Positions 2,701 to 18,348 of a stretch of DNA of 30,082 nucleotides are shown here, piece by piece. The notes beneath the pieces are model-generated. The model saw nothing but the letters and a program-made list of their open reading frames with translations. It was not told where the DNA came from and did not search any database. Every line of letters begins with the position of its first letter. The stretch's first letter is position 1. The stretch is from a virus (Duplodnaviria; Heunggongvirae; Uroviricota; Caudoviricetes). The position numbers were made by a program, and so were the translations under genes. The stretch lies in IMG/VR virus record IMGVR_UViG_2627853983_000001; one strand, 5' to 3'.

Positions 2701-2976
2701 ATGAACAAAGAAAATGTGATTACCCTGGACAATCCGGTCAAGCGTGGTGAGCAGGTCATCGAACAGGTCACGCTGATGAAACCCAGTGCGGGGACGCTGC
2801 GCGGTGTCAGTCTGGCTGCGGTCGCAAACTCCGAAGTCGATGCACTGATTAAAGTGCTGCCGCGCATGACGGCACCGATGCTGACCGAGCAGGAGGTCGC
2901 CGCACTGGAACTGCCTGACCTTGTGGCGCTGGCCGGTAAGGTGGTCGGTTTTTTGTCGCCGAACTCGGTGCAGTGA
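2701..2976 (+). CDS. E: Tail assembly chaperone E (frame-0 product)
   Basis: 91-aa ORF between tube and tape-measure genes, same length as P2 E. Confidence 0.88.
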   Translation: MNKENVITLDNPVKRGEQVIEQVTLMKPSAGTLRGVSLAAVANSEVDALIKVLPRMTAPMLTEQEVAALELPDLVALAGKVVGFLSPNSVQ

Positions 2977-3128
2977 CGTTCCCGAAAAATCTCTCGGTCG
3001 ATGACCTGATGGCGGATGTGGCAGTGATATTTCACTGGCCGCCATCAGAACTGTATCCCATGAGCCTGACCGAACTCATCACATGGCGCGAAAAGGCGCT
3101 CCGGCGAAGCGGAAACACGAATGAGTAA
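2701..3128 (+). CDS. E': Tail assembly chaperone E+E' made by programmed -1 ribosomal frameshift at slippery heptamer T_TTT_TTG (2949..2955)
   Basis: Slippery run GGTTTTTTG near the 3' end of E. The -1 frame stays open to TAA at 3126..3128, giving about 142 aa as in P2 E+E'. The extension overlaps the start of T. Confidence 0.75.
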
Positions 3129-11036: not shown

Positions 11037-11308
11037 GTATTCGTATTGAAATTGGCGAACGTTATGTCGTTACCAGTGACAGCTTTCAGTTTATTCTCCA
11101 CGAGAAAAAGAGAGCGGAAAGCGGTAAAAACGCCGGTCAGGAATGGCTGGCGGTGGTTGGTTATTACCCGAAATTAGGCCAGCTCGTTTCCGGCCTGATG
11201 CATCACGATATTCTGACCGGAAGCGCAAAATCTTTTGCTGATTTAAACGCGCAGGTTGAGCAACTCAGCAAGCGTTGTTCAGAGGCTTTTGGCTCATATG
11301 GCCGTTAA
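11033..11308 (+). CDS. Small early protein (P2 orf83-region)
   Basis: 91-aa ORF overlapping neighbours by 4 nt; operon context. Confidence 0.65.
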   Translation: MSIRIEIGERYVVTSDSFQFILHEKKRAESGKNAGQEWLAVVGYYPKLGQLVSGLMHHDILTGSAKSFADLNAQVEQLSKRCSEAFGSYGR

Positions 11309-13574
11309 AGCCTCCGGGCGTTTTGTCCCTCCGTCAGCATTTACCGCAGGCACCGGTAAGGCGTTTACCGGTGCTTATGCATGGAACGCGCCACGCGAGG
11401 CTGTCGGGCGCGAAAGACCTCTTACACGTGACGAGATGCGTCAGGTGCAAGGTGTTTTATCCACGATTAACCGCCTGCCTTACTTTTTGCGCTCGCTGTT
11501 TACTTCACGCTATGACTACATCCGGCGCAATAAAAGCCCGGTGCACGGGTTTTATTTCCTCACATCTACTTTTCAGCGTCGTTTATGGCCGCGCATTGAG
11601 CGTGTGAATCAGCGCCATGAAATGAACACCGACGCGTCGTTGCTGTTTCTGGCAGAGCGTGACCACTATGCGCGCCTGCCGGGAATGAATGACAAGGAGC
11701 TGAAAAAGTTTGCCGCCCGTATCTCATCGCAGCTTTTCATGATGTATGAGGAACTCTGCGATGCATGGGTGGATGCGCATGGTGAAAAAGAATCGCTGTT
11801 TACGGATGAGGCGCAGGCTCACCTGTATGGTCATGTTGCTGGCGCTGCACGTGCTTTCAATATTTCCCCGCTCTACTGGAAAAAATACCGTAAAGGACAG
11901 ATGACCACGAGGCAGGCATATTCTGCCATTGCCCGCCTGTTTAACGATGAGTGGTGGACTCATCAGCTTAAAGGCCAGCGTATGCGCTGGCATGAGGCGT
12001 TACTGATAGCTGTCGGGGAGGTCAATAAAGACCGTTCTCCTTATGCCAGTAAACACGCCATTCGTGATGTGCGTGCGCGCCGCCAGGCAAATCTGGAATT
12101 TCTTAAATCGTGTGACCTTGAAAACAGGGAAACCGGCGAGCGCATCGACCTTATCAGTAAGGTGATGGGCAGTATTTCTAATCCTGAAATTCGCCGGATG
12201 GAGCTGATGAACACCATTGCCGGTATTGAGCGTTACGCCGCCGCAGAGGGTGATGTGGGGATGTTTATCACGCTGACCGCGCCGTCAAAGTATCACCCGA
12301 CACGTCAGGTCGGAAAAGGCGAAAGTAAAACCGTTCAGCTTAATCACGGCTGGAACGATGAGGCATTTAATCCAAAGGATGCGCAGCGTTATCTCTGCCG
12401 TATCTGGAGCCTGATGCGCACGGCATTCAAGGATAATGATTTACAGGTCTACGGTTTGCGAGTCGTCGAGCCACACCACGACGGAACGCCGCACTGGCAT
12501 ATGATGCTTTTTTGTCATCCACGCCAGCGTAACCAGATTATCGAAATCATGCGTCGCTATGCGCTCAAAGAGGATGGCGACGAAAGAGGAGCCGCGCGAA
12601 ACCGTTTTCAGGCAAAACACCTTAACCGGGGCGGTGCTGCGGGATATATCGCGAAATACATTTCAAAAAACATCGACGGCTATGCACTGGATGGTCAGCT
12701 CGATAACGACACCGGCAGGCCGCTGAAAGACACTGCAGCGGCTGTTACCGCATGGGCGTCAACGTGGCGCATTCCGCAATTTAAAACGGTTGGCCTGCCG
12801 ACAATGGGGGCTTACCGTGAACTACGCAAATTGCCTCGCGGCGTCAGCATTGCTGATGAGTTTGACGAGCGCGTCGAGGCTGCACGCGCCGCCGCAGACA
12901 GTGGTGATTTTGCGCTGTATATCAGCGCGCAGGGTGGGGCAAATGTCCCGCGCGATTGTCAGACTGTCAGGGTCGCCCGTAGTCTGTCGGATGACGTTAA
13001 CGAGTACGAGGAAGAAGTCGAGAGAGTGGTCGGCATTTACGCGCCGCATCTCGGCGCGCGTCATATTCATATCACCAGAACGACGGACTGGCGCATTGTG
13101 CCGAAAGTTCCGGTCGTTGAGCCTTTGACTTTAAAAAGCGGCATCGCCGCGCCTCGGAGTCCTGTCAATAACTGTGGAAAGCTCACCGGTGGTGATACTT
13201 CGTTACCGGCTCCCACACCTTCTGAGCACGCCGCAGCAGTGCTTAATCTGGTTGATGACGATGTTATCGAATGGAATGACCCGGAGGTCGTGAGGGCGCT
13301 CAGGGGCGCATTAAAACACGACCGGAGAACGCCAAACCGTCAGCAAAGAAACGGAAGCCCGTTAAAACCGCATGAAATTGCACCATCGGCCAGACTGACC
13401 CGGTCGGAACGATTGCAAATTACCCGTATCCGCGTTGATCTCGCTCAGAACGGTATCAGGCCGCAACGATGGGAGCTTGAGGCGCTGGCGCGTGGCGCGA
13501 CCGTAAATTATGACGGGAAACCTTTCACTTATCAGGTCGCTGATGATTGGCCGGGATTTTTGTTACCCATTTGA
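11298..13574 (+). CDS. A: Rolling-circle replication initiator A (HUH endonuclease)
   Basis: Start set at MAVKASGRF... (tracked ORF starts 14 codons earlier). Contains HUH-type motif PHWHMMLF and tyrosine motif GYIAKYISK; collinear with recalled P2 A. Confidence 0.92.
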   Translation: MAVKASGRFVPPSAFTAGTGKAFTGAYAWNAPREAVGRERPLTRDEMRQVQGVLSTINRLPYFLRSLFTSRYDYIRRNKSPVHGFYFLTSTFQRRLWPRIERVNQRHEMNTDASLLFLAERDHYARLPGMNDKELKKFAARISSQLFMMYEELCDAWVDAHGEKESLFTDEAQAHLYGHVAGAARAFNISPLYWKKYRKGQMTTRQAYSAIARLFNDEWWTHQLKGQRMRWHEALLIAVGEVNKDRSPYASKHAIRDVRARRQANLEFLKSCDLENRETGERIDLISKVMGSISNPEIRRMELMNTIAGIERYAAAEGDVGMFITLTAPSKYHPTRQVGKGESKTVQLNHGWNDEAFNPKDAQRYLCRIWSLMRTAFKDNDLQVYGLRVVEPHHDGTPHWHMMLFCHPRQRNQIIEIMRRYALKEDGDERGAARNRFQAKHLNRGGAAGYIAKYISKNIDGYALDGQLDNDTGRPLKDTAAAVTAWASTWRIPQFKTVGLPTMGAYRELRKLPRGVSIADEFDERVEAARAAADSGDFALYISAQGGANVPRDCQTVRVARSLSDDVNEYEEEVERVVGIYAPHLGARHIHITRTTDWRIVPKVPVVEPLTLKSGIAAPRSPVNNCGKLTGGDTSLPAPTPSEHAAAVLNLVDDDVIEWNDPEVVRALRGALKHDRRTPNRQQRNGSPLKPHEIAPSARLTRSERLQITRIRVDLAQNGIRPQRWELEALARGATVNYDGKPFTYQVADDWPGFLLPI

Positions 13575-13832
13575 GTAAAAATACAGCGTGATTTTATATG
13601 TCTTTGAATGGATTATGCGAAACACCTCTAAGGTAGATGAGGAGCAATAGCGTGTTGAATCAGAAGGCTAAATTGTATTGAATCGTTAGCATGTAATTGA
13701 AGGCAGCTATTTGATTCGAGTCATAAAAGAGCATCTATTTCGGTTAATAAAACCATTGCGAGTGACTTTATGTCGAAGCATAATTCATCTCGAGCGAAGT
13801 CTTGCTAGTCTTTCATCGGATTGATGACGGGC

Positions 13833-13869
13833 GCAAAAAAACCACCCTGGCAGGTGGTTTTTTTGTTTG
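13833..13869. terminator. Bidirectional rho-independent terminator (A-run, ACCACC-loop-GGTGGT stem, T-run)
   Basis: AAAAAAACCACCCTGGCAGGTGGTTTTTTTG; it can terminate the early operon from the left and the minus-strand small ORF from the right. Confidence 0.65.
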
Positions 13870-13876
13870 AAGCATA

Positions 13877-13990
13877 CTAAAGAAAAATACTTACATGGAT
13901 ATTACTGACGTTTACTGACAAACCACTCGGACTACCATATGGATAGCCAAAGAGGGCCAGAACGAGAATGCAGTAATAGCACTTCTTCAT
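13877..13990 (-). CDS. Candidate small protein, 37 aa (MKKCYYCILVLALFGYPYGSPSGLSVNVSNIHVSIFL), hydrophobic N-terminal half
   Basis: Not in the ORF track because it is under 60 aa. AGGAGG Shine-Dalgarno 4 nt before the ATG; stop codon 7 nt from the bidirectional terminator. Coding status unproven. Confidence 0.35.
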   Translation of the reverse strand: MKKCYYCILVLALFGYPYGSPSGLSVNVSNIHVSIFL

Positions 13991-14646
13991 ATCGCCTCCT
14001 GTAAGCAGAGGGCAATTTCCGCCGATATATGCGCTTCTAAGGCGGAGTGACTATTGAGCGAAGTCTTGCCCTGAAATAATGCTCTGTTTAAACGCAAAGT
14101 GATCTGGCATATCACCGAACAGAGGACCTGAACAACACAACATATAGTATGTCGTTGTTTCTGGTTGCATTTTATGTTGTGTAATACTGGTTTTGCATCA
14201 AGGATGTTTGAGCTTTTTTTGATATAGCTCAAAGTAAAAAGCAGAGACTACGGATGATAAGGTCTTGAAAGCAATGTAAATTTTTTAAAGTTGTGAGTGG
14301 CTAGAAATGCACAGTTTCAATATGGCGGATTTAAACAAGTAATTAAAAATAGCGACATAAATTCCAATAAAATCATTAAGTTGCGTTTTCTGTGGAAACT
14401 TCGGTGACTCTGAAATTTTCTTTTAGTATCGCTGAGGTTTAACAACTCGCTGCGCAAGTAGTTAGTGTTTTTTTAACTCAATATTCTGATTTATAAGGTT
14501 TTTTATAAAACGTGGGCTGGTTGCGCGTATTCATCTCGTGTTATCAGCAAAGATAAGCTCTATATGCAGAACTGAATGCATATATGATGTCGAAAATGTT
14601 ATGGGAAAACGTGGATTAGTGTTATAGTAATGGCTGAAAAACAGCC

Positions 14647-14675
14647 TTGACATAAAATAACAGCTGTGATATGGC
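14647..14675 (+). promoter_or_regulatory. Sigma70-type promoter for the ImmA-like gene (TTGACA, 17-bp spacer, TGaTATGGC extended -10)
   Basis: Perfect -35 hexamer at 14647..14652, TGn plus TATGGC at 14667..14675, about 35 nt upstream of the AGGAGG Shine-Dalgarno and ATG 14712. Confidence 0.5.
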
Positions 14676-14711
14676 TGTGCATACTTAACTTTTTTAACGT
14701 AGGAGGCAACC

Positions 14712-15197
14712 ATGAGCTATGCAGCTAAAAAACTGCTTGACCGCTATTGGGATCGCCGACTACCTGTCGATCCGTTTAAGCTTGCTAAAGCGTGGGGTGC
14801 TCGTGTTGAAGCACTTGAGGAATCGGCTTATAACAACGATGGGTTAAGCGGTCTGGCTGTCATCAAAAAGGGTGTCCATAGGATTTATTTTGATTCTAGT
14901 GAACATTCTAATCGTCAACGTTTTACTGTTGCACACGAGTTAGGTCATCATGTGCTGGGGCATACCCAGGACGGAGAGTACCATCGGGATAATGTCGGGA
15001 ATTATTCAACAGGTGCTCGTGATTACCGTGAGGTTGAAGCAAACAAGTTTGCTGCTGAGTTGTTAATGCCTGAGTCTGCTATACGTCAATTGGTATCCAG
15101 AGAAGGTATTGATAGCACTTTGAGATTAGCAAGCATCTTTAATGTATCAGAAGCCGCTATGCATTGGCGCTTAAAGAGCTTAGGAATGGCTTATTAA
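14712..15197 (+). CDS. ImmA/IrrE-family zinc metallopeptidase (COG2856 / DUF955-like), HEXXH motif
   Basis: 161 aa with FTVAHELGHHVLGH (HEXXH) and downstream EANKFAAELLMPE, the pattern of ImmA/IrrE peptidases. Strong Shine-Dalgarno GTAGGAGG. No adjacent HTH partner ORF. Confidence 0.75.
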   Translation: MSYAAKKLLDRYWDRRLPVDPFKLAKAWGARVEALEESAYNNDGLSGLAVIKKGVHRIYFDSSEHSNRQRFTVAHELGHHVLGHTQDGEYHRDNVGNYSTGARDYREVEANKFAAELLMPESAIRQLVSREGIDSTLRLASIFNVSEAAMHWRLKSLGMAY

Positions 15198-15222
15198 TTA
15201 GCCTTTAACTTTTAACCTGTTT

Positions 15223-15263
15223 AAAATCACCTTTACGTTTGTACATGTAAGGGTGATTTTTTT
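15223..15263 (+). terminator. Terminator-like hairpin (AAAATCACCTTTAC / GTAAGGGTGATTTT) with T-run, overlapping the RBS of the next gene
   Basis: 13-14 bp stem with one mismatch, loop GTTTGTACAT, followed by TTTTTTT ending 1 nt before ATG 15264. Confidence 0.55.
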
Positions 15264-15863
15264 ATGGCTGATATTGATTTATCTGGACAGTCCCCAGAGC
15301 AAGGAACCACTCCTAAGGGCGATTTAGATCCTGATATCCTTATAAGGCGAGATAGACGGGATGGTATAGAGCGTAGAAGTATGCGATTAGTGCTCTCTGC
15401 CGTTGTGCTTTGTTTTGCTTGTACATTTCTATGGCAGGGGCTTAACTTTGCTTTGGCTGTTGGAAATGGCTTGCTGGAAGCGAAAAGCAGTATTGCCGCA
15501 GCGATAACACAAAAAGTAGATACACAAACTTGTGTTTCAGCAGAAAAATGTTCTGCTTTATCTTCGGATCCGAAGATGGCTGATGAGAGGATAACACCAT
15601 CTTCAGACACTAATAAAGTTAGAAAATCTATTTCTGGTTTATCCACCGATTGGTTATCGGCCAGTTCTCTAATAGCTATTGTTGCATTCATCCTTGGTGT
15701 GGGTTTAACTTTGCTTTTGACTCTTCTTAAATCAGCATTTCAACACCCGACAGATAAAGACTTTAGAACAAAGTCGACATCTAATACTATTGAGTTGGCC
15801 ACGCCAATCAGTGAATTAATAATTGGTGTTCTGAATATAATTAAAGACAAACTATCTAAGTAA
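15264..15863 (+). CDS. Predicted two-pass membrane protein of unknown function
   Basis: 199-aa ORF with two hydrophobic segments (LVLSAVVLCFACTFLWQGLNFALAV and LIAIVAFILGVGLTLLLTLL) flanking a Ser/Thr-rich loop; convergent terminator downstream. The overlapping minus-strand ORF 15233..15691 is the alternative reading. Confidence 0.55.
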   Translation: MADIDLSGQSPEQGTTPKGDLDPDILIRRDRRDGIERRSMRLVLSAVVLCFACTFLWQGLNFALAVGNGLLEAKSSIAAAITQKVDTQTCVSAEKCSALSSDPKMADERITPSSDTNKVRKSISGLSTDWLSASSLIAIVAFILGVGLTLLLTLLKSAFQHPTDKDFRTKSTSNTIELATPISELIIGVLNIIKDKLSK

Positions 15864-15904
15864 AGCATTAGTTGTGATTTTTTATTGGTTTTAGTGATAA
15901 TACA

Positions 15905-15938
15905 TCTCCAGTACTTATTGTTACTGGAGAGTATTTTT
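15905..15938. terminator. Convergent terminator between the membrane-protein gene and the 313-aa minus-strand gene
   Basis: Stem TCTCCAGTA / TACTGGAGA, loop CTTATTGT, followed by GTATTTTT; 15 nt from the minus-strand gene stop. Confidence 0.6.
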
Positions 15939-15945
15939 AGTCGTT

Positions 15946-16887
15946 TTATATTTTTAATGTTAGTGAATGATATTCACGAGAGTTCACGTTCGATGTGATG
16001 TAATCGGGGGCGTTAACACCAAGAATCGCAACGAGTAATCGGCAAATTAAAGCCTGCATTTGTTGTAATATGTCATCTCCATATTGATAATTGTTAATAG
16101 TGGTAAAGCCAAGTGGTTGACCATGAAACATAGCTTCATGAAAGTTTTCATTGCGGATGTTTGTAATGTTTTTTTTGCCTGTAACCCATGATGGTCGTGG
16201 TATTCCATAAGTTTTGCAGATCCACTTCAAGCGCCTGGAGTGATTTAGAGTCTTTTCTGTACACTTGTTCTTTTCTGCCCATGTTAAAGCAAAGCAACTA
16301 TCCAGTGCCATGTAAAGATACTGGAATTTTTCGAAGCTAAGGTATTGTGGGTTTTGGGATAAAAATAGTGCATGCACTATTGCTGCTATATTTATTGGTG
16401 CGTGTTTGGTTTTTGTCTCGCTAGACATGTATTTGAGTGCTAATTCTATAACCTCTTTTTCAGAGCACTTGACCAGAATAAAGTCAGTTAATTTGCTGGG
16501 TTTTATTGGGGTTGCGTCTAAAAAACCGGCATCAGTAGTTGTTAATCTTATCCCTTTGAAAAAAGACAGACACCACACAGCAAAATTGAGAGTTTCTAGT
16601 GAAGATGTATTTTTTAATTTTAGTGAGTGTGTTTTGGGTAAGCCAAATACTCGTTGGCTAAAAGGCATTGTGGATATGCCTCCATTGAGGTTATATACTT
16701 CTTGGTTTCCTGGGTATATCCAACCGTTAATAACATTTCTGTGATTGTTTATAAGATTTGTTTTTTCCGCCAGACCGGGTAAAGTAAGTAAAGAAAAATC
16801 ATCAGTTTCAACGTTAACTTCTACTGGATAGTATCCAAACTCAGCTTCAATATCATTGGATTGCTGTTCGTCAACTTTACCTTGCAT
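15946..16887 (-). CDS. Hypothetical 313-aa protein with HEPN-like RNxxxH motif (RNENFH, residues 245..250); candidate abortive-infection RNase
   Basis: Long ORF in the AT-rich island with GGAG Shine-Dalgarno 6 nt upstream. The RNENFH motif was verified on the DNA (minus strand of 16138..16155). The fold assignment is inferred from the motif only. Confidence 0.7.
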   Translation of the reverse strand: MQGKVDEQQSNDIEAEFGYYPVEVNVETDDFSLLTLPGLAEKTNLINNHRNVINGWIYPGNQEVYNLNGGISTMPFSQRVFGLPKTHSLKLKNTSSLETLNFAVWCLSFFKGIRLTTTDAGFLDATPIKPSKLTDFILVKCSEKEVIELALKYMSSETKTKHAPINIAAIVHALFLSQNPQYLSFEKFQYLYMALDSCFALTWAEKNKCTEKTLNHSRRLKWICKTYGIPRPSWVTGKKNITNIRNENFHEAMFHGQPLGFTTINNYQYGDDILQQMQALICRLLVAILGVNAPDYITSNVNSREYHSLTLKI

Positions 16888-16905
16888 ACATTGCTCCGGT
16901 CAAAA

Positions 16906-16933
16906 ATAGGCTCGATAATTCTCGTAAGCCTAT
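16906..16933 (-). promoter_or_regulatory. Leader hairpin plus U5 tract (terminator/attenuator-like) immediately upstream of the RBS of the 313-aa gene
   Basis: On the minus strand: ATAGGCTTACGA-GAATTA-TCGAGCCTAT followed by TTTTT, then GACCGGAGCAATGT-ATG. Confidence 0.45.
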
Positions 16934-17124
16934 CATGTTCGCAAAGTATCCATACCTGTGGATTTTGTAAATTTAAGTTGATTTGTCATTAAATAAGCCG
17001 TTGCATGCAACAAGTGAATGTTTTTGCATGCGTCGGGGATGTCCGTTCAGGCTGCGTGCGGTCAGGACTGGTGCGGATCCATAGTATCTATGCAACTGCA
17101 TTAAAACCGCCCCATGAAGCGGGC

Positions 17125-17143
17125 GGGCGAGGCGGGGAAAGCA
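17125..17143. other. cos: cos site (19-nt cohesive end sequence GGCGAGGCGGGGAAAGCAC)
   Basis: Exact match to the P2 cohesive-end sequence as I recall it, in the expected position just beyond the portal gene Q. Confidence 0.75.
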
Positions 17144-17284
17144 CTGCGCGCTGGCGGTGGTGCTGATTTTATTTTTTCAGCGTCTGAGCGCGTCGTGATG
17201 GCGTTTAGATTGTGCGCCGGGGCGTTGGTGTGTCTGCGGGCTGTTTTGTGCGGTGGTGAGTGTGTGAGGGCGTGATGACGGGCT

Positions 17285-17308
17285 GTAAAAAAGCCGCCCG
17301 CAGGCGGC
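17285..17308 (-). terminator. Rho-independent terminator downstream of Q (minus strand)
   Basis: GCCGCC-CGCA-GGCGGC stem followed on the minus strand by TTTTTT. Confidence 0.6.
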
Positions 17309-17313
17309 GATGT

Positions 17314-18348
17314 TCAGCCGTTGTCAGTGTCCAGTGAGTAGTTTTTAAAGCGGATGACCTCCTGACCGAGCCAGCCGTTTATCTCGCGGATCCTGTCCTG
17401 TAACGGGATAAGCTCATTGCGGACAAAGACCTTTGCCACTTTCTCAATATCACCCAGCGACCCGACGTTCTCCGGCTTGCCGCCCATCAACTGAAAGGGG
17501 ATGCGGTGCGCGTCCAGCAGGTCTGCGGCACTGGCTTTTTTGATATTAAAAAAATCGTCCTTCGTCGCCACTTCACTGAGCGGGATAATTTTAATGCCGT
17601 CGGCTTTTCCCTGTGGGGCATAGAGAAACAGGTTTTTAAAGTTGTTGCGGCCTTTTGACTTAACCATGTTTTCGCGGAGCATTTCGATATCGTTGCGATC
17701 CTGCACGGCATCAGTGACGTACATGATGTATCCGGCATGAGCGCCGTTTTCGTAATACTTGCGGCGGAACAGCGTGGCTGATTCATTCAGCCAGGCAGAG
17801 TTAAGGGCGCTGAGATATTCCGGCAGACCGTACAGCTCCTGATTAATATCCGGCTCCAGCAGGTGAAACACGGAGCCGGGCGCGAAAGGTGTCGGCTCAT
17901 GGAAGGACGGCACCCACCAGTAAACATCCTCTTCCACGCCACGGCGGGTATATTTTGCCGGTGAGGTTTCCAGTCTGATGACCTTACCGGTGGTGCTGTA
18001 ACGCTTTTCCAGAAACGCATTACCGAACACCAGAAAATCCAGCACAAAGCGGCTGAAATCCTGCTGGGAAAGCCACGGATGCGGGATAAATGTCGAGGCC
18101 AGAATATTGCGTTTGACGTAAATCGGTGAGCTGTGATGCACGGCAGCACGCAGGCTTTTTGCCAGACCGGTAAAGCTGACCGGTGGCTCATACCATCTGC
18201 CGTTACTGATGCACTCGACGTAATCCAGAATGTCACGGCGGTCGAGTACCGGCACCGGCTCACCAAAGGTGAATGCCTCCATTTTCGGGGCGCTGGCGGT
18301 CATTTTTTTTGCCGCAGGTTGCGGTGTTTTCCCTTTTTTCTTGCTCAT
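17314..18348 (-). CDS. Q: Portal protein
   Basis: 344-aa ORF; P2 Q length and position next to cos. Confidence 0.92.
   Translation of the reverse strand: MSKKKGKTPQPAAKKMTASAPKMEAFTFGEPVPVLDRRDILDYVECISNGRWYEPPVSFTGLAKSLRAAVHHSSPIYVKRNILASTFIPHPWLSQQDFSRFVLDFLVFGNAFLEKRYSTTGKVIRLETSPAKYTRRGVEEDVYWWVPSFHEPTPFAPGSVFHLLEPDINQELYGLPEYLSALNSAWLNESATLFRRKYYENGAHAGYIMYVTDAVQDRNDIEMLRENMVKSKGRNNFKNLFLYAPQGKADGIKIIPLSEVATKDDFFNIKKASAADLLDAHRIPFQLMGGKPENVGSLGDIEKVAKVFVRNELIPLQDRIREINGWLGQEVIRFKNYSLDTDNG

Follow-up and report, generated by a model that had tools for sequence, protein, structure and literature searches.

How can a mobile element carry a gene whose ribosome-binding site (RBS) is itself part of a stable hairpin, and what would such an arrangement serve? 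This question is raised by the junction of two genes in a stretch of 30,082 nucleotides of viral DNA (IMG/VR record IMGVR_UViG_2627853983_000001; "the window" below means this whole stretch), which is an Escherichia coli P2-like prophage. A gene for an M78-type peptidase is followed there by a gene for a small membrane protein, and the hairpin between them takes up the Shine-Dalgarno (SD) sequence of the second gene. With a probability that we put at roughly 55%, this hairpin is an intercistronic attenuator combined with an SD lock, which holds the membrane protein far below the peptidase, the membrane protein being a harmful effector and the peptidase beside it an antitoxin or gatekeeper.

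The hairpin and the ribosome-binding site

The hairpin lies on the plus strand at 15223-15260 (38 nt) and forms 16 pairs, two of which are G.U. Its 5' arm, AAAATCACCTTTACGT (15223-15238), contains the hexamer AUCACC, the loop is TTGTAC (15239-15244), and the 3' arm, ATGTAAGGGTGATTTT (15245-15260), contains the entire SD of the membrane-protein gene, AAGGGTGA (15249-15256). A run of seven T (15257-15263) is at once a terminator-like U-tract and the spacer between SD and AUG. The stem-loop with seven T next to ATG 15264 that an earlier note on this DNA had described is borne out by the sequence and by the fold, as is its claim that the only SD-like element ahead of this ATG lies in the right arm. 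The title of that note, however, had placed the start codon inside the hairpin, and this has to be corrected: ATG 15264 directly abuts the T-run and lies outside the stem, 3 nt past its extended form.

Folded with RNAfold, the region 15195-15290 has a free energy of -25.1 kcal/mol (z = -3.94), and none of 200 dinucleotide shuffles is as stable. In the predicted ensemble the SD core GGGUGA is unpaired with a probability of at most 0.002, so that the SD is paired in the dominant structure. Freeing the RBS of the membrane-protein gene is predicted to cost about 19-20 kcal/mol, which ranks second among 30 genes of the window, although the opening energy alone is not exceptional, because it is also high for some other GC-rich P2 genes (and amounts to 12-17 kcal/mol for the peptidase gene).

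Three other accounts of the junction were considered and set aside. The SD is not a weak one, as its duplex with the anti-SD of 16S rRNA has -10.2 kcal/mol, equal to that of the AGGAGG of the peptidase gene. An RNA thermometer of the fourU or ROSE type is not consistent with the predicted stem, which is too stable (13-16 bp, -17 to -25 kcal/mol at 37 C). Translational coupling to the stop codon of the peptidase gene is unlikely, this codon lying at least 25 nt before the stem.

The intercistronic spacer between the peptidase stop and the hairpin (15198-15222, plus strand) differs in sequence between loci. In some loci (homologous loci carry L numbers here) the hairpin is enclosed by an outer helix, in which the region around the stop of the peptidase gene pairs with the first four codons of the membrane-protein gene. 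In the window it joins 15197-15203 with 15267-15273 (AUUAGCC/GGCUGAU), and in L020 it reads GAUCGGUC/GGCCGAUC (L020/L021, around 2912-3012). A second conserved structure or an antiterminator in the spacer was not found by RNAalifold, and the outer helices of the single folds (window, L020/L021 and L011) are unconserved.

Conservation of the hairpin across loci

Seventeen distinct homologous intergenic regions have the hairpin at the corresponding position, with compensatory changes, which shows that it is a selected structure beyond chance. In all 17 regions the SD lies inside the 3' arm, 4-7 nt ahead of the AUG. From stop to start the window has 66 nt, and the other hairpin-bearing loci have 67-74 nt. 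Occlusion of the RBS, as proposed in the earlier note, is predicted for all loci of Enterobacterales and Vibrio that were inspected.

Four unrelated sequence classes of hairpin occupy this junction. Class 1 (ATCACC../..GGTGAT) is found at 13 distinct enterobacterial junctions, where its arms are near-invariant (AAATCACCAT[C/T]AT / AT[G/A]ATGGTGATTT) and held fixed, while the loop and the upstream spacer are free to vary. The AUCACC of the 5' arm has the same letters as the 16S anti-SD, and for this reason the arms of class 1 would be unable to drift. The other classes are GCCACC/GGTGGC in L036 and L038 (AAAGCCACC..GGTGGCTTT followed by TTT(T)ATG), GCCACU/GGGUGGC in L037 (AAGCCACU..GGGUGGCUU followed by AUUAUG) and GCCCUCA/UGAGGGC in Vibrio (AAGCCCTCA-AAAAA-TGAGGGCTT followed by TTTAATG). 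There, too, the SD (GGUGG or GAGGG) is within the 3' arm.

The hairpin is the sole substantial consensus helix found by RNAalifold, and its inner pair 71-86 is UA in seven sequences and CG in six. Covariation was scored in an alignment (A3) of nine distinct arm pairs, into which constant anchors were padded to fix the register. In A3, 89.7% of the cells are paired, as against 32-48% with the partner slid, both sides have changed in 8 of the 14 pairs, and the covariation score of 0.385 (0.02-0.10 when slid) is reached by none of 500 shuffles, all of which has to be read with the reservation that the register was chosen via complementary hexamers and thereby favours pairing. Minimum-free-energy folds of single sequences independently recover the same hairpins.

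The near-perfect palindrome, with its conserved outer half-sites ATCACC/GGTGAT, might also be thought to act as DNA, either as an operator for a dimeric DNA-binding protein or as a recombination site. However, loop length ranges from 4 to 10 nt across loci, the inner stem covaries, and in the other classes the half-sites are swapped for unrelated complementary sequences. Moreover, G.U pairs work in RNA only, and the cassette encodes no DNA-binding protein. We regard a role as DNA as extremely improbable.

Predicted termination and translational occlusion

The arrangement of a stem-loop followed immediately by a U-rich tract, which characterises intrinsic terminators, is present at this junction. 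The tail that follows the ATCACC/GGTGAT core is TTTTTTAT; in 14 of the 17 loci the SD hexamer is followed by a spacer of 5-7 consecutive T (U-run T5-T8), and of the two sides of the palindrome only the sense side bears the long T-run. The core stem has a free energy of -7.4 to -16.5 kcal/mol across loci. The hairpins of L036, L038 and Vibrio have the textbook look of GC-rich terminators, and at the stem base L036, L037, L038 and Vibrio have GCC.../...GGC; in class 1 this position is taken by A:U pairs and then CACC/GGUG. A terminator discriminant of the d'Aubenton-Carafa type (1990), a heuristic here in that its formula was combined with modern energies, is above zero in 13 of 16 loci. The terminator that the earlier note had claimed thus stands as terminator-like in these 13, and falls short in L015, L032 and L037, which score below zero. 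L015 has the tail TTTAATG and L037 the tail TTATTATG, while L032 has a weaker stem.

These low scores raise the possibility that the hairpin represses translation only, that its U-run is simply an A/U-rich spacer with little or no termination, and that both genes are fully co-transcribed. The SD lies in the 3' arm in 17 of 17 hairpin loci, yet the terminator score fails in three of 16; the stem of class 1 is AT-rich near its base, and a simple consensus terminator scan of the window skipped the hairpin. In our reading the scan missed it because the A4:U4 extension of the stem consumes part of the T-run. Against this stand the 5-7 T spacer of 14 loci, with its long run on the sense side only, and the resemblance of independent GC-rich classes to canonical terminators; moreover, a lock by itself would need no stem that abuts a U-run. 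Repression of translation alone is rather unlikely in our view. Judged from the predicted structures, every locus with the hairpin has its SD occluded, and most of these loci, though not all, are terminator-like.

A further possibility is a switch between two transcripts in the style of T4 lysozyme, in which a promoter starting inside the hairpin would yield an mRNA that lacks the 5' arm and has its SD free. The proposed -10 element is TAAAAT at 15222-15227, or TATAAA elsewhere, and reaches into the base of the 5' arm; a -10-like hexamer (TAAAAT, TAGAAT, TATAAA or TACAAT) occurs at or just 5' of the arm in most loci, and in several of them TTCCCA or TTCCCT can be discerned by eye, 17 nt ahead of TATAAA. 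Yet the best matches reach 7-9 of 12 consensus positions, with 3-4 of 6 in the -35 element, and their positions are inconsistent between loci. Such hexamers arise by chance in AT-rich DNA, and the scan of the window found no promoter at the hairpin. We consider a promoter of this kind very doubtful.

The membrane-protein gene

The gene downstream of the hairpin (15264-15863, plus strand; RefSeq WP_000763338.1) encodes a predicted inner-membrane protein of 199 aa with two transmembrane segments (TM1 and TM2). The protein has 53 homologues, with identities from 97% down to about 27%, which share the conserved N-terminus MAD.DLSG (M-A/S-..-D-L-S-G). Because the family and this N-terminus are conserved, and because PGAP calls the same coding sequence, we take the plus-strand open reading frame (ORF) from ATG 15264 to be the true gene. 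The earlier note had allowed for the alternative that a minus-strand ORF at 15233-15691 was the real gene. This alternative is rejected: it is a shadow ORF in the antisense frame whose third codon positions coincide with those of the real gene, and its 158 codons, open in the window, are split into pieces of 61-75 codons in 8 of 18 homologues, while the sense frame is intact throughout.

From the N-terminus, the protein consists of the conserved motif, a variable linker, TM1, a loop with two conserved Cys, TM2 and a C-terminal amphipathic helix. TM2 is near-invariant (AFILGVGLTLLLTLLK; AFILGVGLTL.LTLLK). The two strong hydrophobic helices noticed earlier agree with Kyte-Doolittle peaks centred on residues 47-57 and 135-151 and with helices at 23-88, 116-159 and 180-198 in an AlphaFold2 model, albeit one of low confidence (pLDDT 62.5, pTM 0.38). 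An N-in/C-in topology is suggested by the positive charges ahead of TM1, by the Cys pair in the loop and by the location of both termini on one side; a cytoplasmic protease could then reach the conserved N-terminal motif.

Within residues 1-42 (15264-15390; alignments A1 and A4), the N-terminus carries the short motif [IVLF]-D-[LFY]-[SP]-[GAQ]. It is tied to a juxtamembrane ERRxMR by a linker rich in Pro, Ser, Thr and Gln, whose length differs by tens of residues. As far as sequence can tell, docking or cleavage motifs on a tether typically look like this. Some homologues are called at 144-168 aa, with a start near the near-invariant Met40, and others at full length. The short calls are P0016, P0018, P0019, P0024, P0038, P0040 and P0041, and the same difference is seen between L039/L040 (3287-3769) and L038 (3059-3769). 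They may represent mis-calls or an alternative internal start that yields an isoform lacking the tail.

The only family match of the 199-aa protein is PHROG 8096, which is of unknown function. Pfam and PADLOC have no family for any of 45 members, NCBIfam has none for the window protein, and a scan of species-representative genomes with the family profile gave no match.

The peptidase gene and the two-gene cassette

The upstream gene (14712-15197, plus strand; RefSeq WP_000119270.1) encodes a stand-alone zinc peptidase of the M78 (ImmA/IrrE) type, 161 aa long, that matches Pfam PF06114 at 3.8e-21 over residues 54-155. Its HELGHH is intact, and this motif together with the downstream E..N.FA..LLMP is kept in all homologues aligned, as expected of an M78 peptidase with the HExxH motif. 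Further matches are to capP of PADLOC (1.1e-30), to the peptidase part of RmrA (6e-17) and to the metallo-protease family PHROG 87, as well as to the Protein Data Bank structures of CapP (7t5t, 7.6e-7) and IrrE (3dte). Pfam detects no helix-turn-helix (HTH) domain in it. The SD of this gene, AGGAGG at 14702-14707 (plus strand), stands 4 nt before the ATG, and GTAGGAGGCAACC-ATG or a close variant precedes the peptidase gene in nine of nine enterobacterial loci aligned.

Homology at the DNA level begins at about 14590 for the P2-type and Pectobacterium loci and at 14696, the peptidase SD, for the others, and it stops exactly at the stop codon of the membrane-protein gene (15863). These limits indicate that the conserved unit consists of the peptidase gene, the junction and the membrane-protein gene. 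A candidate promoter at 14647-14675 (plus strand; TTGACA, 17 nt, TATGGC, with a TG two bases upstream), recognised by its match to the consensus only, is confined to cassettes of the P2 and Pectobacterium types, and it lies outside the universally conserved unit because homology to the other loci starts only at 14696. A terminator-like inverted repeat at 15905-15930, found on both strands by the consensus scan, lies between the membrane-protein gene and a convergent gene for a 313-aa protein. In this prophage the transcript of the cassette probably ends at this repeat, which lies outside the conserved cassette.

The contexts of the cassette were drawn from exact-protein look-ups and from viral contigs. 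In every locus inspected, an M78 peptidase of 161-164 aa is encoded directly upstream of the membrane-protein homologue, the peptidase-first order being fixed. The pair ranges from Enterobacterales to Vibrio and Acinetobacter and occurs in a variety of mobile settings. It is present in P2-like prophages of E. coli and Salmonella (L002-L007), at the end of a different prophage in contigs with a protein annotated from Pectobacterium (L008-L010), in a chromosomal island with a Serratia protein (L011), in contigs with an Enterobacter plasmid protein or beside genes of the ParA/ParB type (L013-L015), and in a P1-like element (L016). It is likewise present in Vibrio (L017/L018), in Acinetobacter (L019), in viral contigs (L022-L037) and, found from the peptidase side, in L038 with a protein annotated from Klebsiella.

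In the window the cassette falls between the gene for the replication endonuclease gpA (11256-13574) and the portal gene of gpQ (17314-18348, minus strand; the terminase is likewise on the minus strand), which is the position of the gpA-gpQ hotspot of P2. This interval is a documented hotspot of anti-phage cargo (Rousset 2022, PMC9122126). The supplementary table of that study lists "Peptidase_M78 + hypothetical (+ hypothetical)" with WP_000119270 and the neighbouring WP_001161722, and the M78/membrane-protein cassette is not among the systems described there as validated. The cassette therefore appears to be catalogued yet uncharacterised cargo. The 4 kb from 13400 to 17400 are covered to at least 80% in 46 of 5,426 complete E. 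coli genomes, with 45 records at an identity of at least 99%. An HTH ORF does not occur between gpA and gpQ, and the small ORFs of 13575-14711 give no Pfam match.

Two related arrangements were noticed in the course of these comparisons. In the Serratia-protein locus L011/L012 (5463-6660), a 223-aa ORF lies some 1.8 kb downstream from the cassette and precedes a 371-aa fusion of HTH_3 and Peptidase_M78. By its domains this is a canonical RosmerTA-like arrangement, so that HTH-less and HTH-fused M78 modules would stand in one island. In Pseudomonas aeruginosa prophages (L042-L045, 2501-3434), an M78 peptidase of 170 aa, 46% identical, is encoded just past an S24 CI-like repressor. Its gene is followed, 13 nt on, by that of a 135-aa protein, which has a similar ..PVGLTLLL.. 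motif and two hydrophobic stretches. Homology of this protein to the family is not demonstrable, the hhalign probability being 14.5%.

Proposed role of the hairpin

Under the reading that we favour, most transcripts from the peptidase gene would end in the U-run just ahead of the AUG. Those that read through would keep the SD paired to the anti-SD-like 5' arm (AUCACC), so that ribosomes would rarely load. The net result in the cell would be much peptidase and very little membrane protein. The latter would be a harmful effector, such as a membrane-depolarising toxin or an abortive-infection effector, and the cytoplasmic peptidase would serve as antitoxin or gatekeeper by acting on the cytoplasmic N-terminal tail of the membrane protein. 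A high ratio of peptidase to membrane protein is the likely purpose of the hairpin, because the membrane-protein gene is the downstream half of an M78 cassette in a defence hotspot. High antitoxin-to-toxin ratios are characteristic of toxin-antitoxin modules. We read the membrane protein as a harmful effector because ImmA-type peptidases serve as antitoxins in RosmerTA. The pair would most likely be a module of the toxin-antitoxin or anti-phage kind.

Several observations weigh against this reading. The efficiency of termination is a prediction from sequence, and termination is less conserved than SD occlusion, given the negative scores of three of the 16 loci; the need for a spacer between SD and AUG could by itself account for the retention of the U-run. 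The AT-rich stem of class 1, the costly RBS opening of other genes, the pairing-prone register of A3 and the low-confidence model of the membrane protein also have to be counted here. Moreover, an SD-occluding hairpin is absent from the Acinetobacter locus, which has a spacer of 30 nt, and the Pseudomonas pair of M78 and two-TM genes, in which the homology of the membrane protein is unproven, has a spacer of 13 nt and no hairpin. It follows that the lock is not essential to the gene pair. Finally, no known toxin or defence profile matches the membrane protein.

The missing toxin match is also in line with a different view, in which the membrane protein is non-toxic, a superinfection-exclusion or accessory protein made constitutively at a low level, and the peptidase is its regulator or processing enzyme. 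Small membrane exclusion proteins are common in prophage cargo, and the Pseudomonas pair adjoins an S24 repressor in an immunity region. However, a double lock seems excessive for a harmless protein, and the strict co-occurrence of both genes on plasmids, on islands and in different phages fits an addiction or defence pair better. We hold a harmless membrane protein to be distinctly unlikely.

According to the earlier note, expression may be kept off until specific conditions release it. The data are explained equally well by a fixed low set-point. A conditional variant would see in the cassette an HTH-less relative of RosmerTA, in which the peptidase holds or cleaves the N-terminal motif and the hairpin is a switch opened by a cue, so that the effector is made only in infected cells. 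The cue could be, for instance, read-through induced by a phage, a factor that binds the RNA, or a start site within the hairpin. We consider this variant conceivable, though fairly improbable.

Neighbouring sequences in the hotspot

Past gpA, the interval 13575-14590 consists of about 1 kb of AT-rich DNA with short ORFs only and no annotated gene. It is about 85% identical in the E. coli P2-like prophage L005 and absent at all other cassette loci; the membrane protein of L005 is just 56% identical to that of the window despite this shared stretch. Searches against Rfam at gathering thresholds gave no match anywhere in the window, the hairpin and 13575-14590 included. A 37-aa ORF, MKKCYYCILVLALFGYPYGSPSGLSVNVSNIHVSIFL, lies within this interval at 13877-13990 on the minus strand. 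It has an AGGAGG SD a few bases upstream, is unannotated by RefSeq and has no Pfam match, and its product could be a small peptide, either hydrophobic or secreted. At about 13838-13866, 3' of this ORF, AAAAAAACCACCCTGGCAGGTGGTTTTTTT forms a strong terminator-like hairpin that is bidirectional and has a T-run.

The gene convergent with the cassette (15946-16887, minus strand; WP_001161722) encodes the 313-aa protein mentioned above, which belongs to PHROG 5937, without an assigned function there, and has no match in Pfam, NCBIfam or PADLOC. It is absent from the other cassette loci and outside the conserved unit, and probably represents hotspot cargo of its own.

Comparison with known systems

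A close parallel to the proposed attenuator is found in colicin E operons such as cea-cei-cel of ColE7, where the Rho-independent terminator T1 ahead of the lysis gene cuts read-through and keeps the lethal product below a toxic dose (PMC2896534). In both cases, if the roles proposed here are correct, the gene ahead of a terminator hairpin is protective and the one behind it is lethal and acts on the membrane, and in both the translation of the latter would be further repressed at its SD. By contrast, the SD of the ColE7 lysis gene lies downstream of the T1 stem, and CsrA binds the loop and the SD, whereas the 3' arm of the present hairpin contains the SD as part of the stem, so that no protein factor would be needed. 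The genes are unrelated, and termination at T1 is experimental, while it is predicted here.

At the level of the gene pair, the cassette resembles RosmerTA, in which ImmA-peptidase antitoxins are paired with varied toxins, at least one RmrT being membrane-depolarising (PMC10440598; Millman 2022, preprint 10.1101/2022.05.11.491447). Both are two-gene mobile modules in which an ImmA/M78 peptidase stands beside a variable protein without known domains, in phage and defence contexts. Differences concern the peptidase in particular. RmrA-type proteins often carry an N-terminal HTH (Ernits 2023, PMC10440598), a typical rather than strict feature, whereas the peptidase considered here has 161 aa and no HTH, and it matches the RmrA profiles of 357-400 positions over their peptidase part only (e.g., 146-267 of 363). 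The PADLOC library, which holds Rosmer models, gave no match for the window membrane protein or the 45 members, although this is a weak test given that RmrT proteins are very diverse. The gene order of the cassette is fixed, with the peptidase first, and the antitoxin role of the peptidase is our proposal.

The closest M78 protease domains are those of CapP/CapH, ImmA/ImmR and IrrE/DdrO, in which, likewise, a small protease acts on the product of a neighbouring gene. In these systems the substrate is an adjacent Xre-type HTH repressor, whereas the constant neighbour here is a two-TM protein; an HTH gene is not found nearby, and CBASS genes are not present at the cassette. If it is true that the peptidase targets the membrane protein instead of an HTH repressor, the substrate logic of the ImmA/IrrE/CapP family would be wider than these examples imply.

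Silencing of toxic or lytic genes by SD-sequestering hairpins is known from the fold-back of hok/mok, the early transcript of T4 lysozyme and the lysis gene of MS2. As predicted here, the RBS of a membrane-damaging gene is base-paired in these cases and full-length transcripts are silent. They differ in having a defined release, namely 3' processing, a late promoter inside the hairpin or upstream translation termination. For the present hairpin no release step was identified, an internal promoter being weakly suggested.

The principle is thus already known, both for intercistronic attenuators and for SD-sequestering hairpins before toxic genes. The variant seen here is the fusion of both in one element, in which the 3' arm is the SD and the U-tract is the spacer between SD and AUG, and its convergence across sequence classes. 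A single element of 38 nt would act on transcription termination and on RBS occlusion, and it has apparently been re-invented in unrelated sequence. The comparison also flags a widespread, uncharacterised two-gene cassette in a hotspot rich in anti-phage systems, and the junction offers a testable example of how mobile elements may safely carry a potentially lethal membrane protein.

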